IMG/VR virus record: IMGVR_UViG_2690316131_000017
Strand: one strand, 5' to 3'
Origin: a virus
Lineage: Duplodnaviria; Heunggongvirae; Uroviricota; Caudoviricetes
DNA length: 16,159 nt
Shown here: one piece after another, positions 1,477-16,159 of the stretch
Layout: every line of letters starts with the position of its first letter
Numbering within the stretch: position 1 is the stretch's first letter
Made by a program: the position numbers and the translations under genes
The notes under the pieces: model-generated
Database searches by the model: none
Seen by the model: the letters and a program-made list of their open reading frames with translations, nothing else
What the model was told of the DNA's origin: nothing

Positions 1477-1566
1477 ACTACACCAGGTCAAGCCATTGAT
1501 TTAATTAAATAATTATCATTGAAAAAGTGCCAAAAATCGCAAATTGACTACACCATTAACTACACC
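1477..1566. repeat. three direct copies of ACTACACC (1477-1484, 1547-1554, 1559-1566)
   Basis: Read directly from sequence. Lies in the AT-rich junction between the phoQ stop and the first island gene; candidate recombination or arm-type site. Confidence 0.4.
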
Positions 1567-1582: not shown

Positions 1583-1608
1583 GAAACAACGTGGAACAAA
1601 TAGACACA
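1583..1608 (+). promoter_or_regulatory. copy A of the AACAACGTGGAACAA motif (1585-1599) with a degenerate third AACAA box
   Basis: The 15-mer is identical to the one at 8980-8994 and one mismatch from the one at 14848-14862 (opposite strand). Confidence 0.45.
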
Positions 1609-1977
1609 AGAAATATACAGGCGGGTAATCTTTCCAGGGGGAAGCGCACCAATTCATGAGGGGCGTTAATGTCGATATGGGGATCCCCATAACGGGGCTA
1701 CCGGATTTTTTTCCGGTTAACATTTAATCAGGCTGGTGGGTTTTACATACCCTTGATCACCGTAATGATGATCCAGATGTGCACCTTTTCCACCAATGGC
1801 GGAAAAGCTCCAACCGTAACGATGATCGCTATGGTTGCCTCGATGGTCTGCGTGGTCATTATGACCATTCAGCCAGTGACCTTAATCAGAATTTTTCGCT
1901 AAAAAATGACGTTGGCCACGTCATCCTGATAGCACAAAATCACGTCGATTTTTAATGAACGGTTAAACCGTCTTTTT

Positions 1978-2421: not shown

Positions 2422-4083
2422 TTACACCCCGCTAAATTCTTCCAGTTTCTGGCGGTGGCTGTCGCTTATATCAAAAGCAAAATCCTCATGCTCTGCCTGG
2501 AATGTACCAAACGCCATCAGCGCCGCCACGCTCGGGTCTATCTTGTTCGGTGATTTTTTCTTGTTCGGCTTGATATTGGCGTTCGCGTCACTCTGCATCA
2601 CGACGTTACTCATCGACCAGGACAACACCGGATCGCCACGATGCACAATCACCCTGCGGTTAACAAAAACTTCGAACGATTTCGCCGCCGGACTGAATCT
2701 GAGGTAGGTTTGCGGGAACGGCTCCACCTCAAAGCCTGCCCCCTGTAATTGCGTCCTGAGATGCGTGGCGTTCCACGTATCAAAGCCCACCAGCCTGATA
2801 TTAAATTTCTCCGCATCCTGCATGATGTCATCTCTGATCCGGTCGTAATCAATGCAGTCACCTGGCGTTGTGCGTATCCAGCCCGCTTTAGCCCACTGGC
2901 GATAGACAGCGCGGTTTTTATTGGCGGGGTTCTGTAGCTGGAACTCCGGCAGATAATGACGGGAAACCAGCATGATATTTTTACCGACCGGAAAGGCATA
3001 GCACACGCTGGAAATATCGCTGGTTGATGATAAGTCCAGCCCCGCGTAACACTCCTGCCCGTGTAAATCTTCCTCCGTGAACGTTCCGGCACACTCAGCC
3101 CATGCGCCGTTACCCATCCACGGGGTAGCCCCCTGGCACCAGATATTAAATCGCTTTGTCATCATCTCCACCCATTGCGACGGAATACCCCGCGCTTTCT
3201 GGATGGTTGAGGCCAGTTTTTCACGATCCACGGAAACATCGATGTTAGGGTTAGCCTTTATCCACATCGCCGGATCATCAACCTCGTTTTCGTCGTCCAG
3301 TTCGTAAATCAGTACAAAAATTGAATCGTTGACCTCTTCGCCGTCCAGGATCTGGCAGCAATAATCATAGTGCTGCTTACAGGCTGAAACGACGTTACTG
3401 CCCGATGTGGTAATGGCAAATAACAGCCCTTCGGGACGTGCGCCCATCCCCAGCTCAAGCGCGGAATAAACGCCGTTATCGGGGTGTAGGTGGTATTCGT
3501 CCACGATGGAAAGGCTTGGGTTTGTGCCCTCGATGGTTGCCGCTTTTGCTGCCAGCGGCTTTAACAGGCTGTTGCTTTTCGGGTGCATCACCTTGTGGGC
3601 CTGAATATTCACCCGCCTGCGTAACGGTCGGGATAAAAGGCACATCTGACGCGCATCATCAAAAACGATCCGCGCCTGGTCACGGCTCACCGCTGCGGTG
3701 TAAATATCCTGCTGCCCGTTCTCCATAATCAGAAACCAGTTAGCCAGAATCGCGGCGGTCGTGGATTTCGCATTTTTGCGCGGCACTTCGATAAAGGCGC
3801 TCGTGTATTTGCGCCGTCCGGTGGCCTTAACCTTAAAGCCGAGGATGCACGCAAAGGCGAACTGCTGCCACGGCTCCAGCTCAATGGGTCTGCCACGCAT
3901 CGGCCCTTTTACGTGCGGGCACACCCTGGAAAAGGCAATAAACCGCTCCACAACCTCACGATCGAACGTGTAAAGGGGGCTTTCAAGGTCCGAAAAGTAC
4001 CGTTTAACGGCCTGTTTCAGCCGTTTACAGGCCGGAATTTTGCCCGTTTTTACGTCTTCTGCGTACTTATTCCAGGCGGTCAA
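2422..4083 (-). CDS. terminase large subunit (HK97-type)
   Basis: 553 aa with an N-terminal ATPase P-loop-like segment (PRKNAKST) and a C-terminal nuclease-type region with acidic residues. The ORF-track start at 4083 is TTG with a GAGGA Shine-Dalgarno, overlapping the TerS 3' end by 17 nt. Confidence 0.88.
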   Translation of the reverse strand: MTAWNKYAEDVKTGKIPACKRLKQAVKRYFSDLESPLYTFDREVVERFIAFSRVCPHVKGPMRGRPIELEPWQQFAFACILGFKVKATGRRKYTSAFIEVPRKNAKSTTAAILANWFLIMENGQQDIYTAAVSRDQARIVFDDARQMCLLSRPLRRRVNIQAHKVMHPKSNSLLKPLAAKAATIEGTNPSLSIVDEYHLHPDNGVYSALELGMGARPEGLLFAITTSGSNVVSACKQHYDYCCQILDGEEVNDSIFVLIYELDDENEVDDPAMWIKANPNIDVSVDREKLASTIQKARGIPSQWVEMMTKRFNIWCQGATPWMGNGAWAECAGTFTEEDLHGQECYAGLDLSSTSDISSVCYAFPVGKNIMLVSRHYLPEFQLQNPANKNRAVYRQWAKAGWIRTTPGDCIDYDRIRDDIMQDAEKFNIRLVGFDTWNATHLRTQLQGAGFEVEPFPQTYLRFSPAAKSFEVFVNRRVIVHRGDPVLSWSMSNVVMQSDANANIKPNKKKSPNKIDPSVAALMAFGTFQAEHEDFAFDISDSHRQKLEEFSGV

Positions 4084-4423
4084 GCTCGTCCTCTTCTTCT
4101 GTTTCCGGTGGATTTTTACGGCGGCTTATCGGGTCAAAACCGAGCAAAGAGGCCATTTTTATCATCACTCTTTCAGCGTCGGATTTTGCGCTTAATGCGG
4201 GGTTTCTGCTCTCACCGCCCTGACTGTTAACAATGCTGAACCCGCGCGCCGCAAGGTCTGCAACGGCTTTCCGGTAAATGGAGTAGTTGACACAATACAG
4301 TTCCAGATTGCTCCAGTCGGCGGGGGTCAGGTCTCCCCGTTCCGCAAGCTGCCTAGATTTTTCCCGCCACTGCTTCACGGCGATATCATCCAGGTAGGCG
4401 GGGGCTTTCGGTGGTCTTGACAT
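4067..4423 (-). CDS. terminase small subunit, P27 family
   Basis: 118 aa; the pattern (LTPADWSNLELYCVNYSIYRKAVADL ... NPALSAKSDAERVMIKMASLLGFDPISRRK) is typical of P27-type TerS; acidic C-terminus. ATG at 4423. Confidence 0.85.
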   Translation of the reverse strand: MSRPPKAPAYLDDIAVKQWREKSRQLAERGDLTPADWSNLELYCVNYSIYRKAVADLAARGFSIVNSQGGESRNPALSAKSDAERVMIKMASLLGFDPISRRKNPPETEEEDELDRLE

Positions 4424-4546
4424 GCTTATTTTTTCGCCAGATTATTTTTCAAAAAATTCCCGTGCATAAAAATTTGAGGAGGCGTTCGGTGCCCGGCGGA
4501 GTCGGGTTTGTCCTGAAAACGCCCCCCACCCCGTCATACAGCCTCA
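4424..4546. other. candidate cos/packaging-site region upstream of TerS
   Basis: 123-bp non-coding gap between the HNH-side small ORF and TerS, containing a G/C-rich tract (aaaacgccccccaccccgtc). In HNH plus P27-TerS cos phages the cos site usually lies near terS. Position is inferred only. Confidence 0.3.
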
Positions 4547-4729
4547 TCAGCGATTGCGAAAACATTCCATAACCTCGCGGTCACGGTCGGTTAATCGCTT
4601 CGCTGTGATGCGTTCTGCGCGTCCTGACGCTTTATCTTTATGCCCTGTTTCCTGTGTCTTCCATGCGTCACGCTGCCTTATAAGTCCACGGATAAGGCGG
4701 TTTTGTTCCCGCTCATTCATCAGCGTCAT
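4547..4729 (-). CDS. small basic hypothetical protein (60 aa)
   Basis: ATG at 4727-4729 inside the longer track ORF 4547-4951, overlapping the HNH 3' end. Basic composition. Uncertain. Confidence 0.35.
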   Translation of the reverse strand: MTLMNEREQNRLIRGLIRQRDAWKTQETGHKDKASGRAERITAKRLTDRDREVMECFRNR

Positions 4730-5153
4730 ACATCCAGTTATTGCGGTTAGCGGCCCGTTCTTCCTCTGCACGAAATCCACCTGCGGCACGCTTGCTTTTT
4801 GTTGCCGGATCAAGCCATTTCGTTTTCTGGTTATGACACGCCTGGCACAATGGTTGATGGTTCCATTCGGGCCAGAAGAGAACATCATCACCGCCATTAA
4901 TCGGGATAATGTGATCCACCACCACGGCGGGCGTATATATCCCCTTCTCAAGGCATCGCACGCATAACGGGTTTTTACTCAGATACATGGCGCGGTATTT
5001 GTCCCACTGTCTGGAATATCCACGCGCGCGGCGGTGTCCTCGTCTGGCATCCTCTGCACGCCATGCCGCCCGCCTGTGCTCCTCACACTTGCCGGATTTA
5101 ACGCGCCTGTTACAGCCTGGTTCTGTGCATCGTCTTAATGGTTGCCACGGCAT
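4713..5153 (-). CDS. HNH endonuclease (terminase-associated)
   Basis: 146 aa with Cys-rich Zn-binding segments and an HNH core (DHIIPINGG ... NHQPLCQACHNQKT). ATG at 5153 overlaps the connector stop (ATGA). Confidence 0.85.
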   Translation of the reverse strand: MPWQPLRRCTEPGCNRRVKSGKCEEHRRAAWRAEDARRGHRRARGYSRQWDKYRAMYLSKNPLCVRCLEKGIYTPAVVVDHIIPINGGDDVLFWPEWNHQPLCQACHNQKTKWLDPATKSKRAAGGFRAEEERAANRNNWMYDADE

Positions 5154-5449
5154 CAGTACACCCCCACATCACGGTAAGCCGTCCAGAGTGCGCCAATCGT
5201 CATGGGTACGCGTGTTTTTGCGTTATCCGCGACAATCTGGCGATTCTCATACAGGTGAGCGATAAACATCATGCAGCCAATCTTTATGGCTGGCGTGAAC
5301 TCCAGCCCGTCATCAAAGCGCCTGCCTATGTGTATCTGGCACGCCTCAAGCGATGCGGCAATGTATCCGCTGATTAACTGGTCTTCCTCGTCTCCATCGA
5401 TACGGCAATGGAGTTTCACTTCTTCCAGGGTGATAAGTTCTTCTGTCAT
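5153..5449 (-). CDS. gp6-like head-tail connector protein
   Basis: 98 aa; N-terminal pattern (ITLEEVKLHCRIDGDEEDQLISGYIAASLEACQ) is typical of the gp6-like connector family. ATGA overlap with the upstream gene. Confidence 0.78.
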   Translation of the reverse strand: MTEELITLEEVKLHCRIDGDEEDQLISGYIAASLEACQIHIGRRFDDGLEFTPAIKIGCMMFIAHLYENRQIVADNAKTRVPMTIGALWTAYRDVGVY

Positions 5450-5784
5450 TTTTCCGCGCCCTCACGACAAAGAATTTCAAGGCGTGTCCTGGCGACATCC
5501 GGCAACGGCTGCCCGATGATATTCAGTACACGCCCCGCCAGCGGCCCCGTACTGACCTTTATCCGGCTGGTGGCGTTGATGTCCTTCCGGTACCGTATCC
5601 AGATCCTTACGGTACCAATCGCCAGCTCTGCGCCCGATGAAATGGCCTCCTTGCTGCTGATCATGTTCACGCTTGCCCAGAGTGTGTGACCGTCCTCCCA
5701 CGTTTCGAGTATTTCGCCCGTCATGGCTCTGGTCTGTTTCAGGGTCTGAATCGTTATCCTGTCACGCAGTCGCCCTATGTTCAT
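5446..5784 (-). CDS. phage head closure / head-tail adaptor protein
   Basis: Pattern RITIQ ... WASV ... IRYR ... ATSRI is typical of head-tail joining proteins. I prefer the ATG at 5784 (ATGA overlap with the portal stop) to the track start at 5826. Confidence 0.75.
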   Translation of the reverse strand: MNIGRLRDRITIQTLKQTRAMTGEILETWEDGHTLWASVNMISSKEAISSGAELAIGTVRIWIRYRKDINATSRIKVSTGPLAGRVLNIIGQPLPDVARTRLEILCREGAEK

Positions 5785-6992
5785 TCCGTTTTTTCTCCCT
5801 CGCTGATTTTTACTTCCTGTTTCCATGCCTGGCTGAACTCATCACCACCATCACGCGGTGACAGTCCTTCACGTTCGCGGGCTTCGTTCGGGCACATAAC
5901 GCCGGATTTGATGCCGCGCTCATAGGTGGCAAAGCGTTCGCCAGGTGTGGCCCGTAACAGGTCCGCGCTGTCAAACTCCACCTGATACCGGATACCAGGT
6001 ACAGGCGAGGCCACCAGCAGGGCGTTTTTTATCTGCTGCTCAAAGTTCGCCAGCCACGGGCGCATCGTCATGGTGAGAAATGCGCGGCTTGCCTCGCTGA
6101 AATTGCTGTAGGTGCTGTTGCTGTATTCCTGCAAAAAAATCGGCGAGACGTTGAACATTCGGGCGATGTCTTCAATGGTAAAGCGACGGGAGGCCAGCCA
6201 TTCAGCATCCTGATTACTCATGCCCAGCTGCTGATAGCTCATACCCCCTTCAAGGATGGGCGTTTTTCCGGCGTTTCTGGCCCCTTTGTAGCGTTCCAGT
6301 GCGGCTAATGCCTGTTTGCCCTTCACGCCGTCCAGCCATTCGCCTGACGTGATAACCCCTGCCGCCATCATGCCATCACGCATCACGCTCGCGCCGTGGC
6401 GTTGTTGGGCCAGCCCAAGCCCCAGCGATTCGCGGCAGATGGTTACAGGTGAGCGCCCCATAAAGCCGTCATCCGTGGAGTAACGAAGGTGAAGTACTTC
6501 CCACGGTAAATAGTTGTGGGTGTTTCCGGTGTAGGCGTCAGTGATGCAATAGCGCCAGTTGTGTTCTCCTGTCTGCTCCACGTTCACCGACTGCGGCGGG
6601 TAAGGATGTAAAGCCGCCGGAAAACCATCACGCCCCCACTGAATAACCGCATAAGCATTACCGTTTAACAGGCAGTGGCGGATCATCATTCGCTTAAACT
6701 AGTAGGGGGTTTGCCATGCGTTCGGGCGCTCGTTGAAGATGTGATCGACCGGATGAGAATCAAGCCACTCGCGGGCCTCCTTCCCCTTCTCATTGCGTAC
6801 CAGGTACAGGTAGCATGGCATAGTAGCCACCGCCTCAGAGATGACCGTAACGGCGTTCATGACGGCAGGCAGTGATTCCGCTGTCCCCGATGATACGTAC
6901 TCACCCGCCCCCGTGTTCGATGTGCCGGCCAGCGCCATAAATTCATCAAGCGTCATGCTGCGCTGCTCTTTTTTTCTTCTGAAAGGCCACAT
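5781..6992 (-). pseudogene. HK97-family portal protein interrupted by one in-frame TAG (codon 98, plus coordinates 6699-6701)
   Basis: Track ORFs 6699-6992 (97 aa, portal N-terminus AVMNAVTVISEAVATMPCYLY) and 5781-6689 (302 aa, portal core with FTIEDIARMFNVSP) are in the same frame, separated only by TAG and three sense codons. Combined length ~403 codons is portal-sized. Confidence 0.8.
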
Positions 6993-6993
6993 A

Positions 6994-7566
6994 TCACACC
7001 CCCGCTAAATCCGCCCACCAGCGGCGATTATCCGCACGCGGCATTTTTTCGGGGTGCTGCTCATACAGGGAACGGCGGGCCAGCTCCACGCCGGAATCGG
7101 GGTAAGCCGGTACCGATGTAACGGTAATTTCGTACAGTTCCGCCACCAGCACGGTGCGCACGCATGGATCTGTTGTGGTATCCCATACATCCTTACGGGA
7201 GCGAAAGCCAAAGCTCATGCCGGATATATCACCACGTTTAACCAGTTCGATAACGTCGCGCCCTGTACTGGTATCCGGTGGGGTCAGTTCAAAGCGTAAC
7301 CCTGTTTCATCCTCTTCCAGTTTCAGCGTGCCGGAACGGGTGCGCCCCAGTAACATACTGTGGTCATGCTCATACAGGCCGCGAACGTCATTACCCGCCG
7401 CAAGCCATTCAGTAAACGCCCCCCGCTGGAATTTTTCGTAAAACTCACCCCATAACAGTTCTGAAAGCTTATCCCAGCGAACAACGTAGCCTGTAAGCGT
7501 GTTGCTGCCGCTGGTGGTGATTTCCGATGACCGGATTTCCATACTCTTCATAATTTTTTCACCCAT
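6994..7566 (-). CDS. HK97-family prohead protease (S78-type)
   Basis: 190 aa; the pattern (GYVVRWDKLSE ... GAFTEWL ... HDHSMLLGRT ... GMSFGF ... SVPAYPDSGVE) matches the prohead protease family. Stop is 1 nt before the portal ATG. Confidence 0.85.
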   Translation of the reverse strand: MGEKIMKSMEIRSSEITTSGSNTLTGYVVRWDKLSELLWGEFYEKFQRGAFTEWLAAGNDVRGLYEHDHSMLLGRTRSGTLKLEEDETGLRFELTPPDTSTGRDVIELVKRGDISGMSFGFRSRKDVWDTTTDPCVRTVLVAELYEITVTSVPAYPDSGVELARRSLYEQHPEKMPRADNRRWWADLAGV

Positions 7567-7575
7567 AAAACACTA

Positions 7576-7595
7576 AAGGGGCTTTTAAGCCCCTT
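7576..7595 (-). terminator. stem-loop between the capsid and protease genes (AAGGGGCTT..AAGCCCCTT), candidate partial terminator
   Basis: 9-bp inverted repeat in the 39-bp capsid-protease gap, followed on the minus-strand RNA by a U-rich stretch (UAGUGUUUU). Confidence 0.4.
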
Positions 7596-7605
7596 CTGTA
7601 TGCTG

Positions 7606-8763
7606 TTAATCGTCGTCCTGTGGCAGTTCCAGAATCTTGATCGCGTTCGAATCCACCACGCCACCGCCTAAATATTTCTGCGTGAAAATTTTGATGAAGC
7701 CCGGCTCTGTGAGGTTGTCCGGTCTGGTGCGAACACCTGTTTCGTGATCAACAATGTAGTAACCGCGTTTGAAGTCACCCAGGGCAATAACGTTATCAGG
7801 CATAAACTCCAGATATTCGACCGGAAGGCCCAGCAACGTATCAGGATCACCCGCCTGTAAACGGTCACGCCAGATGTAATCACCGTTCGCGTTCTTCACC
7901 TTCTGGAGTTTTGCCGCCGTCGTGGAGTTAACCACCCAGACCGCGTTTTTGCGGTATTTTTTACGTAATGCAAATTTCAGGTCGATCAGCGGGTCCGCAG
8001 ATGTCCACGCCAGAGATTCGGAAGGTTTAATTACCTGCAACGTACCAAAATCACGCTCTTTGTCGTTCTTCTCTGCACGGGGTACGGATAAAAAGCCTTT
8101 TGCTTTTTTGTCACCGTCGCCCACAACCAGATCGCTTTCTTCGGTTTCCGTGAAGGTGTCGCCAATCTCGCCCGTCAGCCATGAAAGGATGTCCACATCG
8201 GAAAAATCCACGATTTCCTGTGTGGTGCGCGGGTACGCATAGACCGGATACAGCTTAATGCTCACCTCGTTAATCTGCGGGGTGCTGGTCTGTTCGCGTG
8301 CCTTACCCTCTTCACCGTGGTTAACGGTCGCACCGCCAGCGGAAACAAGCTGCTTAAACTCGTTGCTGCTGATTTTCTTCACGGTACAGATGCGGCGCAT
8401 GGTGGATTCATCCGCCAGCATTCGCATGATTTCGGTGTTCAGTTCGGGGATAACGGTATAACCACCATCAGCGGGAACGCCTGTACTTAATGCGCGGGTT
8501 TCACCCGTCAGAATGTAGTTTCGTAGTTCTGCGGGGTCAGTGGTCTGACTGCTTTTACCTGGCTTGCTGCGCTCTTCGTCTGCAATGGCTTCAAGGCGGG
8601 AAATGTCTTTATCGAGGGATTCAGCTTTAGCGCGTAATTCGTCAAATTTTGCGCCCTCAGCATCGTTAAGACTGCGGTTTTCTTTTTCAGCGTTCTCCAG
8701 CATGTCGCGCATCTGATTTTTAATGGCGGTTTTCTGCTGGCGTAATTCGATTATTCTCGGCAT
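7606..8763 (-). CDS. major capsid protein, HK97 fold, with N-terminal coiled-coil delta (scaffold) domain
   Basis: N-terminal ~100 aa is heptad-rich and charged, followed by an HK97-like capsid body. No separate scaffold gene. First ATG at 8763; the track ORF extends to a TTG at 8808. Confidence 0.85.
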   Translation of the reverse strand: MPRIIELRQQKTAIKNQMRDMLENAEKENRSLNDAEGAKFDELRAKAESLDKDISRLEAIADEERSKPGKSSQTTDPAELRNYILTGETRALSTGVPADGGYTVIPELNTEIMRMLADESTMRRICTVKKISSNEFKQLVSAGGATVNHGEEGKAREQTSTPQINEVSIKLYPVYAYPRTTQEIVDFSDVDILSWLTGEIGDTFTETEESDLVVGDGDKKAKGFLSVPRAEKNDKERDFGTLQVIKPSESLAWTSADPLIDLKFALRKKYRKNAVWVVNSTTAAKLQKVKNANGDYIWRDRLQAGDPDTLLGLPVEYLEFMPDNVIALGDFKRGYYIVDHETGVRTRPDNLTEPGFIKIFTQKYLGGGVVDSNAIKILELPQDDD

Positions 8764-8978
8764 AAAAAAAAGTCCTGGGGTTAAGTAAGGAACTCCAGGA
8801 CGCGGCAAACACTCAACCGTTTTTCATAAGGAAATCAGCAATCGCACCGATCGTTTTCCCGCCTGGTAATGAATATTGGCGAGCACATTAACAGGCGGGA
8901 AAGTGGCCCCAGCGTCCTGGCACCACGGGCGAGAATAATCATGATTCAGTTCGGGTAAAATATGCCGATCCGCTCAGT

Positions 8979-9008
8979 GAACAACGTGGAACAACCACGA
9001 ACAAATAA
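8979..9008 (+). promoter_or_regulatory. three 10-bp-phased AACAA boxes overlapping the -35 of the packaging-operon promoter
   Basis: GAACAACGTG GAACAACCAC GAACAAATAA. On the minus strand the proximal box (TTGTTC) sits 16 bp upstream of TATTTT (8957-8962), about 190 bp upstream of the capsid ATG. Confidence 0.5.
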
Positions 9009-9018
9009 TTTACAAAAA

Positions 9019-9046
9019 ATAACAAAAAGCCGGATTGCTCCGGCTG
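9019..9046 (-). terminator. intrinsic terminator (stem AGCCGGA/TCCGGCT, loop TTGC, U-tract on minus strand)
   Basis: Perfect 7-bp stem followed on the minus-strand RNA by UUUUUGUUAUUUUUU; 19 bp downstream of the stop of gene 9065-9289. Confidence 0.75.
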
Positions 9047-9064
9047 TATGTGCTGTATGGGTGC

Positions 9065-9289
9065 TCAGTCTCTGATCCCTTTCAGAAATTCTATCAATGC
9101 ATCTGTCTGTTCAGGATTTACTGCCAGCATTTCACCGGATAGCGCGCAACGAACAAAACCATGATGATCCTTTTCAATCAGCGCCCCCGTTTCCAGAAAT
9201 GCGCGGTAATCAGTGATATTCATCGTCTCCATGTTGTCAGCATGGTATTTATCACGCTGTTTAAGTATCTCATCAAATTTCATCGGCAT
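9065..9289 (-). CDS. hypothetical protein (74 aa) in a terminator-flanked cassette
   Basis: ATG at 9289 with a GAGGAA Shine-Dalgarno 8 nt upstream (the track ORF runs further up to 9367). No family recognised. Confidence 0.5.
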   Translation of the reverse strand: MPMKFDEILKQRDKYHADNMETMNITDYRAFLETGALIEKDHHGFVRCALSGEMLAVNPEQTDALIEFLKGIRD

Positions 9290-9373
9290 TGCGTTTTCCT
9301 CTGTTGTGTCTGTTTGTTTCAGATAGTAACTATGCCGGACCGTGACGAAAAGCCAGTAGTGCTCCATACCGTT

Positions 9374-9399
9374 TCAAATGACGCAAAAAAAGCCGGATT
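9374..9399 (-). terminator. intrinsic terminator, near-identical copy of the one at 9019-9046
   Basis: Same 23-bp sequence aaaaagccggattgctccggctg; on the minus strand the stem-loop is followed by a U7 tract. Lies 32 bp downstream of ORF 9431-9592. Confidence 0.75.
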
Positions 9400-9430
9400 G
9401 CTCCGGCTGCGTGGTGTGGTTCTGATATTC

Positions 9431-9592
9431 CTACTCTGCTAATTTGCTCAGCCCCATGTCTGCGTAAGTGCGATTTACTGCATTTCTCAGGTCTGCGTAG
9501 TTCTCCGTTGGCGGCTCCGGTGTGCCCTTGCTGCTCTGTTTTACCTGCGGGTCGTCCACCAGCCGCCCGTAAGCGGCTATCTGTGCCGTCAT
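9431..9592 (-). CDS. hypothetical small protein (53 aa)
   Basis: Not in the ORF track (under 60 aa). ATG at 9590-9592 overlaps the stop of the upstream gene (ATGA); hand translation gives MTAQIAAYGRLVDDPQVKQSSKGTPEPPTENYADLRNAVNRTYADMGLSKLAE; TAG at 9431-9433. Confidence 0.35.
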   Translation of the reverse strand: MTAQIAAYGRLVDDPQVKQSSKGTPEPPTENYADLRNAVNRTYADMGLSKLAE

Positions 9593-9903
9593 AATTCCAC
9601 CTCTCCGGTTTTAACGTTGATGGTTGTTACCTGTTCCGCTTCGGCAATCTCCCGTTCTGTCAGCGTGGCAAAGTTTGCCGCCGCCGTGGTCATGAATGCG
9701 CTTATCAGGTCGGGATGTTCCTTCGCGTATCCTTCCCGCGTGTGGCGGTCTATCGTTCTGATTGCCACCTTTAAGGTGTGCTCAGTCATGTCTAACGCTT
9801 TATATTTTGGCTCTGTTCTGTCTCTGCGAATTTTGGTCATTTGTCGCCCCTGATTCATGTTTTCGGCTGGCATGTTTGTTAAGTGATTTTGATGTATGCG
9901 CAT
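9589..9903 (-). CDS. hypothetical protein (104 aa; alternative start at 9840 gives 83 aa)
   Basis: ATG at 9903 is preceded by a strong Shine-Dalgarno (GAGGGGGGTGA); an internal ATG at 9840 also has an AGGGG Shine-Dalgarno. First gene downstream of the ori. No family recognised. Confidence 0.5.
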   Translation of the reverse strand: MRIHQNHLTNMPAENMNQGRQMTKIRRDRTEPKYKALDMTEHTLKVAIRTIDRHTREGYAKEHPDLISAFMTTAAANFATLTEREIAEAEQVTTINVKTGEVEL

Positions 9904-9953
9904 TTATTTTCACCCCCCTCGTTTAAAAAGTTTTGAGTTGTGCCTCCCCCCCC

Positions 9954-10172
9954 TCTACCCATCTACCCGAATGCTCATCATGTCAGTAATGGCGCGGCTT
10001 TCAGCGGGTAGATAGCTTTTTTGGCTCCTCTACCTGCCGTCTACCCTGCTACCTGAAATTGATAAAATCAGGTAGAAGAGGTAGAGAGGTTTTATTAGCC
10101 TTCTACCTAGCCCTCCACCCACTTATCATGTTGAATAATATGCGTTTATCTCATTCAGGTAGATGGGGTAGA
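9954..10172. repeat. replication-origin iteron field: at least 11 copies of TCTACC(C/T) / GGTAGA in both orientations with AT-rich spacers
   Basis: Copies near 9954, 9962, 10006 (inverted), 10029, 10040, 10049, 10071 and 10080 (inverted), 10102, 10158 and 10166 (inverted). Immediately downstream of the primase stop at 10189; flanked by AT-rich tracts and a C8 homopolymer at 9946-9953. Confidence 0.65.
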
Positions 10173-10188
10173 GGGCTTTTACAAAAAA

Positions 10189-11943
10189 TTATAAAAACGC
10201 GTCACAATCATCCGTTGTAATTGCGTTGGTCTGCGTTACTCCCTTAACTTTCCGCGTAATATATTCATGTCCGTAAACTTTTGCCGCTGGCTTCATGGCC
10301 TTGCTGAACTCAGCCACGTTTAGCGGTTTGCTCCTGCCTGCGTATGCCATAAACGCCAGATAGACGCGGTAAAGGCTGTTCCTGGTCGTGTACTTCACTG
10401 AATCGCCACCGCCACCCATCATCAGGCCGCGCGCTTCCTCCAGAAAATTCAGGAACTGGCAAAACTCAATAACCGGATCCGTCTGTTGCTTTATTGCCAG
10501 TGCTTCATCACCGTCGCGCTGTTCCAGGAGTAAAGCCCGTGCCTTTTCAGGGTCGGCAAAGTTCGCCAGTAATCGGCGGATAATCACAGGGATTTCAGCC
10601 GCAATCTTTTCCGGTAGCTCCCTGTCTTTTTCGGCCTCACTGACGATATTGTCGAAACGGAAAATCACGCGACGACGTGCCACACCTCCGGCCCGTTCGG
10701 TGAATATCATCGGGTTGTTGTTGGTCGCCAGCACCACCGCCCTGATTACCGCCGTGAAACGCTTTTCATATTTCGGGTTAATTTCCACGGGGTCGCCGCC
10801 CGTGATTTTCTTGATGCCCGTTCCTTCGCCTGTATATTTCGGCTGGTCTGCCAGGACGATAAGACGACTCCCGACAACCTGCGCACGTCCACCAGCATCA
10901 TCAAGCGATGTCATCTCAGCGCTTACCGTGTTCTGTTTCCCTGCCAGAAGGCTGGCTATGTGTGTGAATGTACTTTTACCGCTCCCGCCGTCTCCGGTGG
11001 CCTCAATAAACATCTGCCAGTCGTACCGGTTCGCCATAATCATGTACAGCGCGGCACATATACGCATCATCTTGCGCGGGTCTTTTCCGGCTGCGTGCTC
11101 AAGCCATTTATGAAAGTTTGGCGCGTTGTCGCGGATATTCTCCCCTGGTGCTGGTGGCGTGTACTCAATGCCGTTATGCGTGGTGATCCAGTTCTCCGGC
11201 GTGTGCGGGGAAAATTCCCCCGTTTTCAGGTCAAGCACACCATTGGCGAACGGCAGCAAATCGCCGGACGGTTCGCCCATTGGTTCGGCAATAACTTTTA
11301 ACGCTTCCACGGTGTTATTGATTACGCGCTTGCTGAAAGTGGCCCTGTGCTCTGAATAGATCGCCACCATTTCGCGGCTCAGTGCCATTGTGCTGACCGG
11401 ACACCATACCCCGCCGCGCCATACGTGAACGATTTCACTTTCAGGATGTACGCAAACGCCATCAAAGCGCCCGGCAAGCAGCTGCGCGCGCTCACTGTCC
11501 GCCATCTGCGAAAGTTGCGCCTTTTGCTTTACCGGAAGCTCAATGACCAGACCATCAGAAAGATTCTGGCGCTCACGGGCCAGATATTCGCGCCAGTTCT
11601 CCACCTCCTGAACGTGCATTCCCTCAGGGTAAAAATTTGCATCCTGTACACCTGCCGCCGCCAGCTTCTGACCAATCGCCTTTATCATTACAGGCTCAAG
11701 ATGTCCGGCCCTGAATATGCGTACTGATTTTCGGCCTTCCGGCACAATTTGCAGCTTATCCAGTTCGGATAACTGCTGCTCCCCAAGCCACACAGGAGGC
11801 TCATTATCTCCGGCCATACGCGCGTCATGTTCCTGCCATTGTTTTGCGTGTGACCAGGCATCACTACCCGCAAAAATAATGACTTCTGTTTCTTTGTGTT
11901 TTATGCCGCGTGACTGCTGTTTTACGTTCGGTGCCAGTTTCAT
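10189..11943 (-). CDS. P4-family primase/helicase (replication initiator)
   Basis: 584 aa with a Walker A P-loop (GDGGSGKST) in a D5/P4-type helicase region preceded by a primase-like N-terminal domain. ATG at 11943 overlaps the upstream stop (ATGA). Adjacent to the iteron ori. Confidence 0.88.
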   Translation of the reverse strand: MKLAPNVKQQSRGIKHKETEVIIFAGSDAWSHAKQWQEHDARMAGDNEPPVWLGEQQLSELDKLQIVPEGRKSVRIFRAGHLEPVMIKAIGQKLAAAGVQDANFYPEGMHVQEVENWREYLARERQNLSDGLVIELPVKQKAQLSQMADSERAQLLAGRFDGVCVHPESEIVHVWRGGVWCPVSTMALSREMVAIYSEHRATFSKRVINNTVEALKVIAEPMGEPSGDLLPFANGVLDLKTGEFSPHTPENWITTHNGIEYTPPAPGENIRDNAPNFHKWLEHAAGKDPRKMMRICAALYMIMANRYDWQMFIEATGDGGSGKSTFTHIASLLAGKQNTVSAEMTSLDDAGGRAQVVGSRLIVLADQPKYTGEGTGIKKITGGDPVEINPKYEKRFTAVIRAVVLATNNNPMIFTERAGGVARRRVIFRFDNIVSEAEKDRELPEKIAAEIPVIIRRLLANFADPEKARALLLEQRDGDEALAIKQQTDPVIEFCQFLNFLEEARGLMMGGGGDSVKYTTRNSLYRVYLAFMAYAGRSKPLNVAEFSKAMKPAAKVYGHEYITRKVKGVTQTNAITTDDCDAFL

Positions 11944-12239
11944 TTTTTACCCCTGAATCCGTTAATCATGGTTTTCAGCTTCTGGATGTTTGCCCGTGCC
12001 CTGGCGTTGCTGGTGGGCACGTTATGCGGCGCGGTCTGTACCAGAGAAAAATCACGCCGGAACTGATAAACAGGCATCACGCAATCATATTCGTAACCTT
12101 CACGGCGGTAAGTTACGCACCGTCCCGCCACGCCCTTAATCATTACCGTGCCGCCGTACTGGTCGCGGTAAATATCGCCGCGCGTAAATTTAGGGTGAGT
12201 GTTGCCACTGGCAGTTAAGCCAGAATATTTAAGTTTCAT
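11940..12239 (-). CDS. hypothetical protein (99 aa)
   Basis: ATG at 12239 with a GGAGAA Shine-Dalgarno; translationally coupled to the primase. No family recognised. Confidence 0.55.
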   Translation of the reverse strand: MKLKYSGLTASGNTHPKFTRGDIYRDQYGGTVMIKGVAGRCVTYRREGYEYDCVMPVYQFRRDFSLVQTAPHNVPTSNARARANIQKLKTMINGFRGKK

Positions 12240-12244
12240 TATTT

Positions 12245-12478
12245 TTATTCTCCGGTGTGCTGTTCTTTATATCTGTCGTGCAATAGATCTATTTCTTGCA
12301 GTTCCATTATTACAGGCTCAAGAAGCGTTATTAATGCCGTGGCAATTCTTGATTTTTGTTTGTCGCGTTCATTGTCGCCAAGTGTTTCAAGCCATATGCG
12401 CAATATTTCCAGCATGTTTTCACTGTGAGAAAGTGCAAGAAATGCGCGGTCTATTGTTTCGAGGTAAATATCACGCAT
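12245..12478 (-). CDS. hypothetical protein (77 aa)
   Basis: ATG at 12478 overlaps the upstream stop by 8 nt (ATGCGTGA); begins MRD. Confidence 0.5.
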   Translation of the reverse strand: MRDIYLETIDRAFLALSHSENMLEILRIWLETLGDNERDKQKSRIATALITLLEPVIMELQEIDLLHDRYKEQHTGE

Positions 12479-12704
12479 GGCTTACATCCTCAGGAAATTT
12501 TCTTCTGTAACGCGCCTCTGCCACATATTCCGCATAATCGGCGGCGATATTCAGTACATCAAGCCCCGTTGATTTATATTCTCTCGTGGAAAGTAAGAAA
12601 AAAGCCGCTCTAATAAGTTCTGGCATTGACGAAAGCGCATCAGCCGCATCATCAGGAACGCCGGAAAATTCCTGTTTCAGGGAATTAAAACGATCATCAC
12701 GCAT
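12471..12704 (-). CDS. hypothetical protein (77 aa from internal ATG; track ORF to 12731)
   Basis: ATG at 12704 is preceded by a GGGGGG Shine-Dalgarno and overlaps the upstream stop by 8 nt with the same ATGCGTGA junction; also begins MRD. Confidence 0.45.
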   Translation of the reverse strand: MRDDRFNSLKQEFSGVPDDAADALSSMPELIRAAFFLLSTREYKSTGLDVLNIAADYAEYVAEARYRRKFPEDVSHA

Positions 12705-12936
12705 AACCCCCCCCATTTTCACAATCAGCAATCAGGATGGCTTTGGCCTCATTCAGCGCCATATCCGCACTAAGTTGCATAACCGCCAGCGAATGAGGAA
12801 CGAAAGCCCCGGCATATTCTGTTTCACTGGTGGCGTGCTTATGCGCCCTGTCAGCAATAACAGAAATATCAATAAGCGCGTGCATCAGCGTAGTGAGCGC
12901 GGCGGCAGCTGCGTCCGGACGGATGTTATTGCACAT
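12697..12936 (-). CDS. hypothetical protein (79 aa from internal ATG; track ORF to 12993)
   Basis: ATG at 12936 is preceded by a GGAGGGG Shine-Dalgarno. Ala-rich. Confidence 0.45.
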   Translation of the reverse strand: MCNNIRPDAAAAALTTLMHALIDISVIADRAHKHATSETEYAGAFVPHSLAVMQLSADMALNEAKAILIADCENGGGYA

Positions 12937-13159
12937 GGTGTACCCCTCCGCATTTTTTTTCGTTAGAAATAAGCGTTCTTCTTTCCTGTTCATCGCTCAG
13001 GAATACGCAGACCTCACCGCTAAGGCGTTTAAGTAAGCCGATGATTGCCCCTGATTCGCTGTCGGTCATCATGCCAGGGTAATCCTCTGCCAGTGCGCAA
13101 ATGACTTCGATTTGGTGGGCGCGTTCTGCTGCCTGTTGTAGTGTGATTTCCTGGCTCAT
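12926..13159 (-). CDS. hypothetical protein (77 aa from internal ATG; track ORF to 13225)
   Basis: ATG (MSQEIT...) overlaps the stop of the upstream gene (ATGA). Coordinates follow the ORF-track frame. Confidence 0.45.
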   Translation of the reverse strand: MSQEITLQQAAERAHQIEVICALAEDYPGMMTDSESGAIIGLLKRLSGEVCVFLSDEQERRTLISNEKKCGGVHHVQ

Positions 13160-13356
13160 AAGCCTACCCCCTGACGAATACGGGCGGCGAATACCATCAC
13201 GCAGCCAGCCGGAGATTGCTGGCATGCTTCCTGTTCGCTGGTGGCCTCAATGGTAATCACGCGCGGTTGTGCCGTGCTCAGGGCGATAAAACGCCAGATG
13301 TATTTATTCAGGTTGTGCGAGTCCCGCCCTTGCGGGTGTGTGGTATGATTTCTCAT
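13156..13356 (-). CDS. hypothetical protein (66 aa), first gene of the leftward early operon
   Basis: C-terminal 66 codons of the 387-aa track ORF. ATG at 13354-13356 with a GAGGT Shine-Dalgarno, directly downstream of the operator-bearing promoter. The rest of the long ORF is judged spurious. Confidence 0.4.
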   Translation of the reverse strand: MRNHTTHPQGRDSHNLNKYIWRFIALSTAQPRVITIEATSEQEACQQSPAGCVMVFAARIRQGVGL

Positions 13357-13453
13357 AGCTACCTCGATACTTTCGCTATCGTTGGTGGTTAGACGCCCTG
13401 CATGTGTTGCGAGCACTGCGGGGCGTTGCTTAATTTGAGTGACAAAACTCAAA

Positions 13454-13540
13454 CTGTGCGCACAGATTAAAATCATGTGTGCGCACATGTCAATACTTAA
13501 CATCTCATTTTTTTTGCTGTATTGTGTGCGCCCATAAAGT
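13454..13540. promoter_or_regulatory. divergent promoter/operator switch with TGTGCGCACA palindromes
   Basis: Perfect 12-bp palindrome CTGTGCGCACAG (13454-13465), 10-bp palindrome TGTGCGCACA (13478-13487) and a half-site TGTGCGC (about 13525-13531). Leftward promoter read on the minus strand: TTGACA (13488-13493), 16-bp spacer, TTTAAT (13466-13471). Candidate rightward promoter TTGCTG / TAAAGT. Confidence 0.55.
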
Positions 13541-13561
13541 CCATTTAAGTGAGGTGCATCA

Positions 13562-13759
13562 ATGTCTAGCGGTAACACAAACAACAAATCAGCAAAGAAA
13601 AATATTCGATTCCCGCATGAGCTTATAGATGGGATTGATGCCAGCGTTGAACAAGAAAAATTAACTAATCCTAGTGCTAATTTTTCCGCATGGGTCTTAG
13701 ATGCCTGTGGACGCAAATTAAAATATGAACAGCGCCGGAAGGCCAAAGAATCAGAATAA
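13562..13759 (+). CDS. small DNA-binding-like protein (65 aa), candidate island repressor; possibly YlcI/YnfO-like
   Basis: ATG at 13562 with a GTGAGGTG Shine-Dalgarno. The segment KKNIRFPHELIDGIDASVEQE ... NFSAWVLDACGRKL has a strand-helix-helix pattern suggestive of a ribbon-helix-helix fold. The YlcI/YnfO (DUF3950) resemblance is from memory and unverified. Confidence 0.55.
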   Translation: MSSGNTNNKSAKKNIRFPHELIDGIDASVEQEKLTNPSANFSAWVLDACGRKLKYEQRRKAKESE

Positions 13760-13816
13760 TCACTATCAGCGCCGTGGTGTGAGGAACTACGGCGCATTTC
13801 TTTACAGGAGTAGACA

Positions 13817-14002
13817 ATGAACAACGAAGAATTACGGGAAATCGCATTATCCATACTTGAAAGACAGGTAGAAAAAAAATTAAGAGAAATGGATGAAATG
13901 CCTGACCATGAACAGGAAGCAAGGCCAAAAAGATTTGCCCTTGAGGATTTTCTTAAAAATTGCCCAAGAAAGATGAGATCGTGGCGTTGTTGTCCGCCCT
14001 GA
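13817..14002 (+). CDS. hypothetical protein (61 aa)
   Basis: ATG at 13817 with a GGAG Shine-Dalgarno; co-directional with the upstream gene and followed by a strong terminator. Confidence 0.5.
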   Translation: MNNEELREIALSILERQVEKKLREMDEMPDHEQEARPKRFALEDFLKNCPRKMRSWRCCPP

Positions 14003-14079
14003 TGACAGATTTGCCAACCAGCCAAAAATGTGGCATCGTTGTCGATACATAGTGTAATCAACATGTATATCATATTTTT

Positions 14080-14106
14080 GCGACCATCATAGGTCGCATT
14101 TTTTTT
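14080..14106 (+). terminator. intrinsic terminator (GCGACC-atcata-GGTCGC followed by T8)
   Basis: Perfect 6-bp GC-rich stem followed by an 8-T run; about 80 bp downstream of the plus-strand gene pair. Confidence 0.7.
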
Positions 14107-14376
14107 GCCTGTAATCCGGCAATTGTGGCGCTTCTTCACACAGTTGATATAATTCCAATGCTCATATTTATTTTTTGTGCAGCAGGTTAATCGTTCACAA
14201 AGGCGCTCAGGTAACTGGGCGCTTTTTGTTATGCCTGAAAAACCCCAATTTTGTTGTTTTTCAGTTTCACCAGGGCGAACGAATCCCCGCCTACGTTCTG
14301 GCGTATATTCAATCTTCATGGTTATAGCTCTGTGTTCAGATGATTGATGTGTGGCGGCTGCGTGCCGCCAGCGTGA

Positions 14377-14565
14377 TTAATGAACTGCCTTGCAGCTATC
14401 CTTCCAGGCCAGAACCTCGGATAAAGACCAGCCAACGGAACGACCGCCAAGTTTACGACGTGATGGGAATTGTCCGGCCTTTTCCAGGCGGTAGCGACAC
14501 GTACGGCTAAGGCCGGTTAGTTTTTCGCATTCTTTTTCACGTATAAACCGATCAGTGCTTAACAC
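14377..14565 (-). CDS. alpA: AlpA-family transcriptional regulator / excisionase-like protein
   Basis: 62 aa; the motif LTGLSRTCRYRLEKAGQFPSRRKLGGRSVGWSLSEVLAW matches the AlpA/excisionase winged-helix family. GTG start at 14565 with an AAGGGGG Shine-Dalgarno 5 nt upstream. Confidence 0.8.
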   Translation of the reverse strand: MLSTDRFIREKECEKLTGLSRTCRYRLEKAGQFPSRRKLGGRSVGWSLSEVLAWKDSCKAVH

Positions 14566-14837
14566 TATTGCCCCCTTTCGTTTCTTAAAGAGTCATCAGG
14601 TGTCTTATTGTGTCGTATTGTTCCCGCTAGAGTGATAAATGGCAAATACTGAGGATGTATGATTTACAGAAAATGAAACAGTAAGAATAAAATCTTTTAA
14701 ATTCACGTTAATACAAAGGCATAAAATATTGTTTCATGCCTTTTTTCTCGCTCTTTAAAGAGTGATTCGCTAGTGTATAAAAAACCAGTAACGCATTAAA
14801 AATCAGCCACTTATAAATCCGTACGCTTTTTCGCCTC

Positions 14838-14912
14838 TTGTTCGTAGTTGTTCCACATTGTTGCTCATTGTTGCACGTTGTATCTGTTCGCATATACAGT
14901 ATGCGCATACTG
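14838..14912. promoter_or_regulatory. five tandem 10-bp units beginning TTGTT (14838-14887) plus a 16-bp perfect palindrome CAGTATGCGCATACTG (14897-14912)
   Basis: Units TTGTTCGTAG, TTGTTCCACA, TTGTTGCTCA, TTGTTGCACG, TTGTATCTGT at exact 10-bp period. The second unit pair equals the 15-mer motif with one mismatch. Lies between the int stop (14930) and the alpA start. Confidence 0.5.
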
Positions 14913-14929
14913 AAAAAACACGAAAAAAA

Positions 14930-16159
14930 TTATTTTCTTCTGGCTACTGGTAGCGTGGTTACGTTTTCATGTGTTCCCGCCAGTATCCCTAACCGCTCCG
15001 TCCACATATCCAGCGCATTGCGTTTAGCATCCAGATAACGGGAATGATTATAAACTCGCTGCATTCCTGGCATCTGGTGGCCTGTAAGCTGCTCCACGAC
15101 GTGAGAATCCACGCCTAAATCGTTCAGCATCGTTGTAAAGGTGCGCCGGATGTCATGTAGTGACCAGTGAGGGTGATTTAGCCTCCTGTGCGCTAATCTG
15201 CCGTACTGCGACACGCTTGTTTCCTGTTTCACTTCCCCCAGCAATAAACCCGTGTGCCTGTTCTGCTCCACCAGCTGCGTGACGAACGGCAGTATTGCTT
15301 CCGGTATGGGCCGGAATATTGCCACCTTCGTTTTGCTGTGTTCTTTCGGCACGGTCCAGAGCATTTCGGTAAAATCCCACTCGCTGATCTCCGATAACCT
15401 CAGTTCTACCGTCCGGCATCCGAACACAATCAGGAGGCGGATTAGCGCGATGTAGTAGGGGGAGAATATTTTTTTGTCCAGTGCCTGCAATAATTCGCCA
15501 AGTTCTTTGTTGCTTAAGACACGCTCGCTTATATCCGGTTTTTTCCCAACGTCCGCCACACTCATATCATCAAGAACGTTGCTGATTGCATAGCGCCGCT
15601 TCCGGCAGAACTTAAGCGCCTGCTTGCATGTCTGTAGCAGGAACCCGGCGGAAACAGGGGCTTGCTTTGCCACCCGATCAAAACAGGCCAGCCAGTGCCG
15701 TAGCTCGCATTTATCCAGCGGCATAGGGCCAATGTGCTGTATTACGTGATTATTTAGCCGCTTTTTCAGTGGGTCATAATCCACACGGTTTTCCTTTGCG
15801 TACGACTCAAGCCAGTAGGTGAGCGTATCACCAACCGTTACCGGCTTTAACGCTTCCTGTACGGTGTAATTCATCTCATGACGTGGATTTTTCCCCTCAG
15901 CCAGCCATGCGCGACACTGGGCGGCTTTTTCCCTGGCTGATTTCAGACTCAGATCAGGATAATTTCCCAGCTTAATGCGTTCCGGTGGTGCCCCCCTTCC
16001 CGTTCCGGCCCTGTAAGTGAAATACCAGGTTAAAAGGCCGCTGGTTGAATGCCTGACGCTCAGATTTCCACCGTCATTAAGAAAGGCTGTTTTTTGGGCG
16101 GGTGTGCCGTTGATTTTCCTTAGCAGTGTATCGCTCAGTTTGTTAAGTGCTCTGCTCAT
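14930..16159 (-). CDS. tyrosine integrase with N-terminal arm-binding (DUF4102-like) domain
   Basis: 409 aa. N-terminal arm-binding-type pattern (LSDTLLRKI ... LNDGGNLSV ... WYFTYR ... IKLGNYPDLSLKSAREKA) and a C-terminal catalytic region with R..HxxR..Y-type residues (HDIRRTF ... HSRY). The ATG is the last 3 nt of the window, so the upstream region and att site are not visible. Confidence 0.9.
   Translation of the reverse strand: MSRALNKLSDTLLRKINGTPAQKTAFLNDGGNLSVRHSTSGLLTWYFTYRAGTGRGAPPERIKLGNYPDLSLKSAREKAAQCRAWLAEGKNPRHEMNYTVQEALKPVTVGDTLTYWLESYAKENRVDYDPLKKRLNNHVIQHIGPMPLDKCELRHWLACFDRVAKQAPVSAGFLLQTCKQALKFCRKRRYAISNVLDDMSVADVGKKPDISERVLSNKELGELLQALDKKIFSPYYIALIRLLIVFGCRTVELRLSEISEWDFTEMLWTVPKEHSKTKVAIFRPIPEAILPFVTQLVEQNRHTGLLLGEVKQETSVSQYGRLAHRRLNHPHWSLHDIRRTFTTMLNDLGVDSHVVEQLTGHQMPGMQRVYNHSRYLDAKRNALDMWTERLGILAGTHENVTTLPVARRK

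Follow-up and report, generated by a model that had tools for sequence, protein, structure and literature searches.

Ten-base-pair-phased AACAA-box arrays in the attachment arms, int-alpA spacer and capsid leader of a capsid-forming phage-inducible chromosomal island as predicted AlpA binding sites

Satellite phage P4 encodes Vis, an AlpA-family excisionase that also regulates late promoters, and the P4 GenBank record annotates the protein as "excisionase and transcriptional regulator". Like Xis, BldC, RdfS and P2 Cox, P4 Vis binds direct repeats head to tail, with about 10 bp per monomer, and several such winged-helix proteins act both as directionality factors and as transcription factors (PMC11963761). 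Among phage-inducible chromosomal islands (PICIs), AlpA of EcCICFT073 activates its own promoter, PalpA, and its overexpression leads to int-dependent excision and replication while Pint is unchanged (PMC6092414); an alpA mutant of EcCIEDL933 shows no induction or transfer (bioRxiv 10.1101/2022.09.08.507074). Our literature search found no report of AlpA binding sites for PICIs, CP4-57 or CP4So. For Gram-negative PICIs, the papers covered give neither an AlpA operator nor a promoter for the capsid operon of capsid-forming PICIs (cf-PICIs), and the terms "binding site" and "promoter" are absent from the text of the cf-PICI preprint (bioRxiv 10.1101/2022.09.08.507074). Here, we describe arrays of short, phased boxes in one such island and its relatives, and propose that AlpA reads them.

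The window, by which we mean the whole stretch of 16,159 nucleotides that was analyzed (IMG/VR record IMGVR_UViG_2690316131_000017), begins with phoQ (1-1461) and continues to its right into a mobile island whose genes are all on the minus strand. Pfam matches spread over 2422-16159 and combine int, alpA and a primase/replicase in one orientation with the island's own capsid and packaging set, which comprises TerL, TerS, HNH, connector, head-closure, portal, protease and an HK97-type capsid protein. The other genes are two small open reading frames (ORFs), the D5-type primase gene, a DUF4222 gene, several genes of unknown function, alpA and int. The product of int (14930-16159, minus strand; PF13356 and PF00589) is a P4-type tyrosine integrase with an arm-DNA-binding N-terminal domain, and alpA (14377-14565, minus strand; PF05930, E = 5e-17) encodes, from a GTG start, a 62-aa protein of the excisionase-type winged-helix family that is our predicted box binder. 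The HK97-type major capsid gene (7606-8763, minus strand; PF05065, E = 2e-61) is the first gene of the packaging operon 3' of one of the arrays, and its 385-aa product is identical in many E. coli islands. No tail or lysis family was matched among the island ORFs tested against Pfam. By this gene set, the island is a cf-PICI; it has a dedicated attachment site (roxA/phoQ), a size of about 15 kb and a close relation to the prototype. Its identity to the island of ~15.4 kb at roxA/phoQ in E. coli O157:H7 Sakai is 97%. The Sakai island has all four of the arrays described below, and from its serotype and size we infer it to be of the EcCIEDL933 type (bioRxiv 10.1101/2022.09.08.507074). The portal gene of the window (5781-6992, minus strand) has an in-frame stop at codon 98 (...WQTPY*FKRMM), where relatives encode an intact 403-aa portal protein, and the island in the window may have lost the ability to form capsids of its own.

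A preliminary description of this DNA had pointed to a 15-mer, AACAACGTGGAACAA, recurring at the island terminus, ahead of the capsid gene and in the int-alpA spacer, and had held that three copies were most unlikely by chance. Both points bear out. The 15-mer recurs without mismatch at 1585-1599 and 8980-8994 and, on the minus strand, with 14 of 15 positions matching at 14848-14862; when up to three mismatches are allowed, the window holds eight matches against 0.51 expected, a count that none of 200 shuffles attained. Every one of these matches falls within a run of a shorter unit, an (R)AACAA box repeated at an exact 10-bp period (one helical turn), and the 15-mer corresponds to two such units. 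The runs comprise three boxes each at 1585-1609 and 8980-9004 and, on the minus strand, five boxes at 14838-14882. Counting at least three ACAA at exactly 10-bp spacing, we find three runs in the window, compared with a mean of 0.006 and a maximum of 1 in 1,000 dinucleotide-preserving shuffles of the same DNA. Across the islands, the arrays consist of 3-6 direct repeats each in exact 10-bp phase, as arrays of directionality factors do. Some boxes share an extended form, AACAA-N3-GACACAA, found in the right half of the terminal array (1595-1609), before a 74-aa ORF (9304-9318) and before alpA (14608-14622); these three copies compare with an estimated chance expectation of about 0.002, and the form may be a high-affinity or nucleating variant of the box. 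An Rfam search of the window returned no family match.

The terminal array lies in an attachment arm. Comparison of the empty K-12 site with both junctions of relatives places the attL copy of the att core, AAATATGCCC, at 1460-1469, where it forms the left boundary of the island and overlaps the phoQ stop codon. From the core inward, the P' arm (the attachment arm far from int) contains a single ACTACACC box 8 bp from the core (1477-1484, plus strand), a tandem pair of 12-mers, ATTGACTACACC and ATTAACTACACC (1543-1566, plus strand), and then, 116 bp inside the island, the three-box array GAAACAA-CGTG-GAACAA-ATAGA-CACAA at its 10-bp period (1583-1611, plus strand). Counted over the window, ACTACACC occurs three times, always within the P' arm. 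The array is kept in every related island with an int-alpA module of the window's type.

The 12-mer pair is repeated about 22 bp upstream of int, and a fourth array, situated just beyond the window in the int-side (P) arm, is seen in the int-side flanks of relatives. In every related island whose int-side flank was fetched, the 250 bp from int to the core contain, outward from int, the tandem 12-mers ATTAACTACACC and then TCGTTGCAC, followed by four phased boxes reading CACAA-TACAA-AACAA-AACAA. Each arm array is adjoined by a tandem 12-mer (ATTRACTACACC x2), so that both arms hold a 12-mer pair together with an array, and the phoQ-side arm carries the same ~65-bp module in the same orientation as the int-side arm, the two modules being direct repeats that are about 80% alike. 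The position of the array relative to the core differs: the P-arm array sits on the core side of the arm sites, and the P' array is distal to them.

Two elements occupy the int-alpA spacer (14566-14929). The five-box array (14838-14882, minus strand) lies just downstream of the int stop codon, about 270 bp upstream of alpA, and points the other way from the arm and capsid arrays, while a two-box element of the extended form, AACAATACGACACAA (14608-14622, minus strand), lies 43 bp upstream of the alpA start. A sigma-70 scan finds one weak promoter-like site at alpA, the only one in the spacer, and its -10 is overlapped by the two-box element. Since the five-box array is inverted, some 270 bp from alpA and beyond a hairpin, it may not belong to PalpA. 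Arrays are thus present upstream of both alpA and the capsid operon, in differing orientations.

The capsid-side array (8980-9004, plus strand) reads as TTGTTC x3 in the direction of transcription and lies between a strong intrinsic terminator and the capsid gene. The terminator is directly upstream (9024-9046, minus strand; 9045-9028 in the terminator scan). A sigma-70 scan of the capsid leader detected no promoter; by eye, a candidate weak promoter can be recognized 20 bp downstream of the array (8932-8959, minus strand), with a -35 of TTTACC (8959-8954), a 16-nt spacer and a -10 of TATTCT (8937-8932). It matches the consensus at 8 of 12 positions, which is below the scan threshold, and it would be the promoter of the capsid operon.

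Upstream of the capsid array, the 74-aa ORF (9065-9289) is flanked by two identical 23-bp intrinsic terminators (9024-9046 and 9387-9409), which suggests that it forms a separate transcription unit; the second two-box element, AACAAACAGACACAA (9304-9318, minus strand), lies 15 bp upstream of it. The capsid leader also contains a hairpin, GUGGUGCCAGGACGCUGGGGCCAC, at about 8905-8930 on the minus strand. Its GACG loop recurs, with compensatory stem changes (CCAG/CUGG to CUCA/UGAG), in an E. coli island (L035, at ~21470), where it sits upstream of a different capsid gene, and in a cf-PICI of Erwinia psidii (L006, at ~9880). The hairpin has no match in Rfam and may be a conserved leader RNA element.

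A second short sequence, CAGGCGGG, had been linked with the motif in the preliminary description on the grounds that it follows the terminal copy by 18 bp (1618-1625) and forms one arm of an inverted repeat in the capsid leader (8892-8899, inverted at 8858-8865). Both placements are accurate, but we rejected the sequence as a part of the element. The window contains six copies (starting at 1618, 3612, 5069, 7850, 8858 and 8892) against 0.67 expected, of which three lie in coding sequence on the coding strand and two pair with each other in an 11-bp stem of the capsid leader; its placement relative to the array differs between terminus and capsid, and it is missing from the corresponding arm in L026. 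Its excess is probably due to codon usage plus one real hairpin.

We then compared 62 loci totaling 1.24 Mb, of which chromosomal flanks make up about half a megabase. These loci contain 105 strict arrays, all located in att arms, in the int-alpA spacer or directly upstream of a capsid operon, and the arrays recur at corresponding places in the relatives of this island from E. coli, Shigella, Salmonella and Erwinia. The flanks yielded no strict array, and a BLAST search of 50,697 phage records with the array regions gave chance matches only. The motif is therefore conserved at equivalent positions and, judged by these flanks, is not a generic host repeat, the two points on which its significance had been said to depend. 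The repeat is a real, conserved, island-specific cis-element. The 38 distinct 10-bp units favor G at -3 and A at -1 and show almost no preference at positions +4 to +6. When the spacer arrays of the window and of four relatives (L001, L022, L026 and L027) are aligned, the bases between the boxes vary and the 5-6 boxes stay in phase, which suggests that the boxes are under selection.

The arrays travel with one genetic module. Islands with an identical AlpA occupy two att sites (roxA/phoQ and pntB/tqsA) and carry three replicase types and two head modules; islands with alpA regions 74-84% identical are found at the abgR/smrA and allE/allC sites. A second AlpA allele, 58% identical to that of the window, is encoded by islands at cspD/clpS; we take EcCICFT073 to be located at this site and thus to belong to the second-allele group. 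Further relatives were found in Salmonella, in Erwinia and in one metagenome assembly (L029), and some islands are recombinants in which an identical capsid protein lies behind a different int-alpA module. Throughout, the arrays track the int-alpA module across three replicases (D5-type primase, AAA_25 and DUF927) and three head modules. The alpA region is present in 904 of 5,426 complete E. coli genomes. One locus (L015; NZ_CM169472.1, strain ESDR8) has the int side of the island adjoining roxA and the other end adjoining a truncated tqsA/ydgV, which suggests a chromosomal rearrangement through recombination between related islands at different att sites.

More distant islands have other repeats. 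The E. psidii island L006 has TACCC x3 before its capsid gene and GTATCCT x2 in its arms, with no motif common to arms and promoters. A scan for periodic repeats in Gilliamella L007 showed TTCAC x3 as the only phased repeat, and the same scan in Citrobacter L005 showed no comparable array. The architecture is thus established for the P4-like int-alpA lineage only.

No DNA-binding protein other than AlpA is shared by all array-bearing islands. The predicted structure of AlpA (pLDDT 85.7) is a winged helix of the excisionase type, with the GIsul2 excisionase (8C3T; TM 0.80, 38% identity) as the best structural match and RdfS as the second; our literature search found no paper on entry 8C3T. Further matches are the BldC-DNA filament, Pukovnik Xis and TorI, and the excisionase entries among the best matches are 8C3T, 8DGL, 4J2N and 1Z4H. 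Its gene adjoins that of a tyrosine integrase, as is typical of a small directionality factor of this fold. We discarded the AlpA antiterminator of P. aeruginosa as a model: that protein exceeds 140 aa and has a Q-like fold, compared with a 62-aa winged helix here, and the two share only their name. The Pseudomonas protein has an N-terminal ring and a C-terminal helix-turn-helix that reads a box between -35 and -10, with DNA contacts at residues 128-142 (PMC9371919), a layout that the island AlpA lacks.

Because AlpA has an excisionase fold, always travels with the arrays and is tied to excision and promoter activation by the genetics of a related island, it is the best candidate for their binder. 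We therefore favor, with moderate confidence, a reading of the arrays as AlpA binding sites that couple excision with gene switching, AlpA binding head to tail with one monomer per box. In the proposed sequence of events, the helper phage would switch alpA on and AlpA would boost its own expression, two steps shown in a related island. AlpA on the arm arrays, acting together with Int on the 12-mers, would then promote excision, and AlpA on the array at about -45 to -75 of the weak promoter behind the terminator would turn the capsid operon on; action through the boxes in these two steps is what their placement leads us to propose. That int transcription is unaffected by AlpA overexpression argues for a direct role of AlpA at att. 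Some observations weigh against the AlpA model: AlpA has no effect on Pint in EcCICFT073, although int has an arm array some 70 bp upstream, and the P' array falls outside the stretch between core and arm sites, which is unusual for a directionality factor.

Another protein could bind the arrays instead, such as a host nucleoid protein, the helper's inducer of alpA or an island regulator like PerC. Helper induction of alpA, a gene with an array upstream, would fit an inducer, and in many relatives perC lies just upstream of the capsid array. However, no window ORF matches the PerC family, even though the window has arrays, a helper inducer would have no reason to need sites in both att arms, and a host protein is hard to reconcile with chromosomal flanks devoid of comparable arrays. 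The second AlpA allele bears on all of these candidates: its recognition helix is CRTTR rather than SRTCR, and together with this change the arrays upstream of alpA become CGAAC x3. In the second-allele islands at cspD/clpS, CGAAC arrays are seen in both arms and upstream of alpA, with CG before every arm box; the arm boxes still contain AACAA, so the shift from AACAA to CGAAC is limited to the arrays upstream of alpA. We looked for a clean co-variation of box and AlpA allele and were partly successful, as arm arrays keep AACAA and the capsid array of a recombinant (L054) is unchanged; because that array is the same next to an AlpA only 69% identical, there is no allele-specific co-variation at the capsid site. 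Recombinants joining a cspD-site int to a window-type alpA were absent from the 10 contexts inspected. On balance, the sequences offer modest evidence that the box co-varies with the AlpA recognition helix, and we consider a binder other than AlpA unlikely.

AlpA binding need not mean that every copy is functional. The terminal P' copy might be an inert duplicate of the ~65-bp P-arm module, with its likeness to the capsid array reflecting shared ancestry. Three observations are in keeping with this: the similarity of the two modules, the position of the P' array distal to the arm sites and the existence of an island (L029) that has no P' array. An inert copy would not be expected to persist as it does beside diverged 12-mers in second-allele E. 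coli islands, in Salmonella and in Erwinia while the sequence between its boxes has turned over, a pattern that points to selection. We regard this alternative as distinctly unlikely, while noting that the location of the P' array makes the P-arm array, outside the window, the more conventional excision site and leaves the terminal copy with the least certain role in recombination.

A further possibility is that the RAACAA arrays are arm-type sites of Int, the internal copies being secondary Int sites. The arm-type sites P'1-3 of phage lambda are also arranged in tandem at about one-turn spacing, the island arrays resemble arm-type sites in being directly oriented in the two att arms, and Int and AlpA alleles are so tightly linked that their effects cannot be fully separated. 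But the arrays also occur at the capsid operon, 5.5 kb from either end, and downstream of int, and a better candidate for the arm-type sites adjoins them. The tandem 12-mers have the P4 layout and, in a search of the window, are confined to the arms. As the N-terminal domain of Int diverges to 62-63% identity, which is seen in E. coli islands at the rcnR/thiM site and in Salmonella, the 12-mer changes from GGTGTAGTTAAT to TGTGTGGTCAGT or TGTGAGGTCAGT (in short form, from ACTACACC to GTGTGGTCAGT or GTGAGGTCAGT, in L046 and L054), and the arrays beside the diverged 12-mers stay C(G/A)AACAA. The metagenomic island L029 retains the 12-mers and lacks the P'-arm array. From these lines we assign the 12-mers to Int, as its likely arm-type sites. 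Int was accordingly rejected as the reader of the RAACAA boxes, both since they occur outside the arms, at 8980-9004 and 14838-14882, and since they remain unchanged while the Int N-terminal domain drops to that level of identity, and we hold an arm-type role for them to be very unlikely.

It is highly improbable that the arrays are replication iterons or terminase recognition (cos/pac) sites, which are also short phased repeats, because they follow int-alpA unchanged over three unrelated replicases and three packaging modules and the window has separate repeats for replication and, probably, for packaging, GGTAGA iterons beside the primase (10068-10181) and GTCAC x4 (1978-2012). The former, TCAGGTAGA(A/T)G(A/G)GGTAGAG repeats with an inverted copy directly downstream of the primase gene, resemble CTACC x3 repeats found after the primase in L003, L004 and L026 and are probably iterons of the replication origin. 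The four GTCAC boxes, at a 10-11-bp period, lie within the 500 bp of non-coding DNA that separate the last gene from the P' arm. They stay with the HK97-type packaging module in L054, where the int-alpA module is a different one; in L026, which has another packaging module, TCACG x4 and CTACG x4 are found in their place. The boxes may be a terminase or cos recognition site.

Reading the arrays as AlpA sites raises the question of how far one protein could run the cycle. The preliminary description had proposed that a single DNA-binding protein coordinates excision or integration with head-gene expression. This stands insofar as AlpA is a plausible candidate and arrays lie at the arms, at alpA and at the capsid operon; it does not extend to islands with lambda-type heads, which have no capsid array, and it is weakened for the terminal copy, which lies beyond the arm sites. 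Among the capsid modules, only the HK97 type and one other (L035) have the capsid array; in L035 it precedes a capsid gene and a leader that both differ from those of the window, and in recombinants with another int-alpA module it is unchanged. Islands with lambda-type head modules (E, D and Nu1) and an identical AlpA are without an array at the late operon, and the region upstream of these modules does not vary with the AlpA allele. If AlpA does control head genes, this control would thus be module-specific.

The lambda-type modules have a conserved upstream region of their own, with ATTTGCAAC...CATTGCATAAAATGCAAT inverted repeats behind two terminators. In L016, L024, L025, L027, L028 and L037-L042 it lies some 300 bp ahead of a 68-aa gene that precedes the lambda-E-type capsid gene, and it contains no AlpA-type boxes.

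It is conceivable, and we put it forward tentatively, that in HK97-type cf-PICIs the single 62-aa AlpA is the whole switch, governing excision, self-amplification and head-gene expression. If so, the late genes of these islands would be independent of the helper's late regulators, and sister islands with the same AlpA and lambda-type heads would use a different upstream element that contains no box. The arrays point to a reason for a possible difference in head-gene timing between HK97-type cf-PICIs and lambda-type PICIs that share one AlpA. They also offer precise, mutable targets at four places, making the cf-PICI switch directly testable, with the prediction that the 12-mers serve the integrase and the boxes serve AlpA, and the phased-box signature could help to annotate att arms and AlpA-controlled promoters. 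The mechanism itself will not surprise specialists; it is the sites that appear to be unmapped.

Judged by their sequence and layout, the arrays most likely belong to the known class of bifunctional excisionase/regulator sites, as a predicted AlpA operator. Within this class, P2 Cox, 186 Apl and RdfS form head-to-tail oligomers on repeats, at about 10 bp per monomer, at both att and promoters (PMC11963761). Cox and Apl mainly repress the lysogenic promoter, RdfS has no clear consensus box, in contrast to the sharp box of the island, and none of the three is known to control the capsid genes of a satellite. The X1-X1.5-X2 sites of lambda Xis are also one-turn direct repeats in an att arm beside Int arm-type sites, on which Xis forms a small filament (PMC11963761), but lambda has them in a single arm, where they lie between P2 and the core, and Xis lacks a comparable promoter role. 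In the PICIs EcCIEDL933 and EcCICFT073, alpA is required for induction and transfer (bioRxiv 10.1101/2022.09.08.507074; PMC6092414).

The closest known system to the island arrays is satellite phage P4. Both elements have a P4-type Int with an arm-binding N-terminal domain and a small AlpA-family protein, and the island matches the "attP arm sequence repeat" of the P4 GenBank record, in which a tandem pair of 12-mers flanks the core on either side and the int-side pair lies a few bases ahead of int. By eye, P4 also has, in its int-side arm, three GGAC/GGAA units with a 10-bp period, located between arm repeats and core. The two elements are unrelated in the sequences of their 12-mers and boxes, however, and PICI AlpA is described as activating the whole cycle and not only as an excisionase (PMC6092414). 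The island has arrays in both arms and one before its own capsid operon, whereas P4 has no capsid operon. What is distinctive here is that both arms have arrays, that the box is sharply defined and that one array precedes a satellite-encoded capsid operon.
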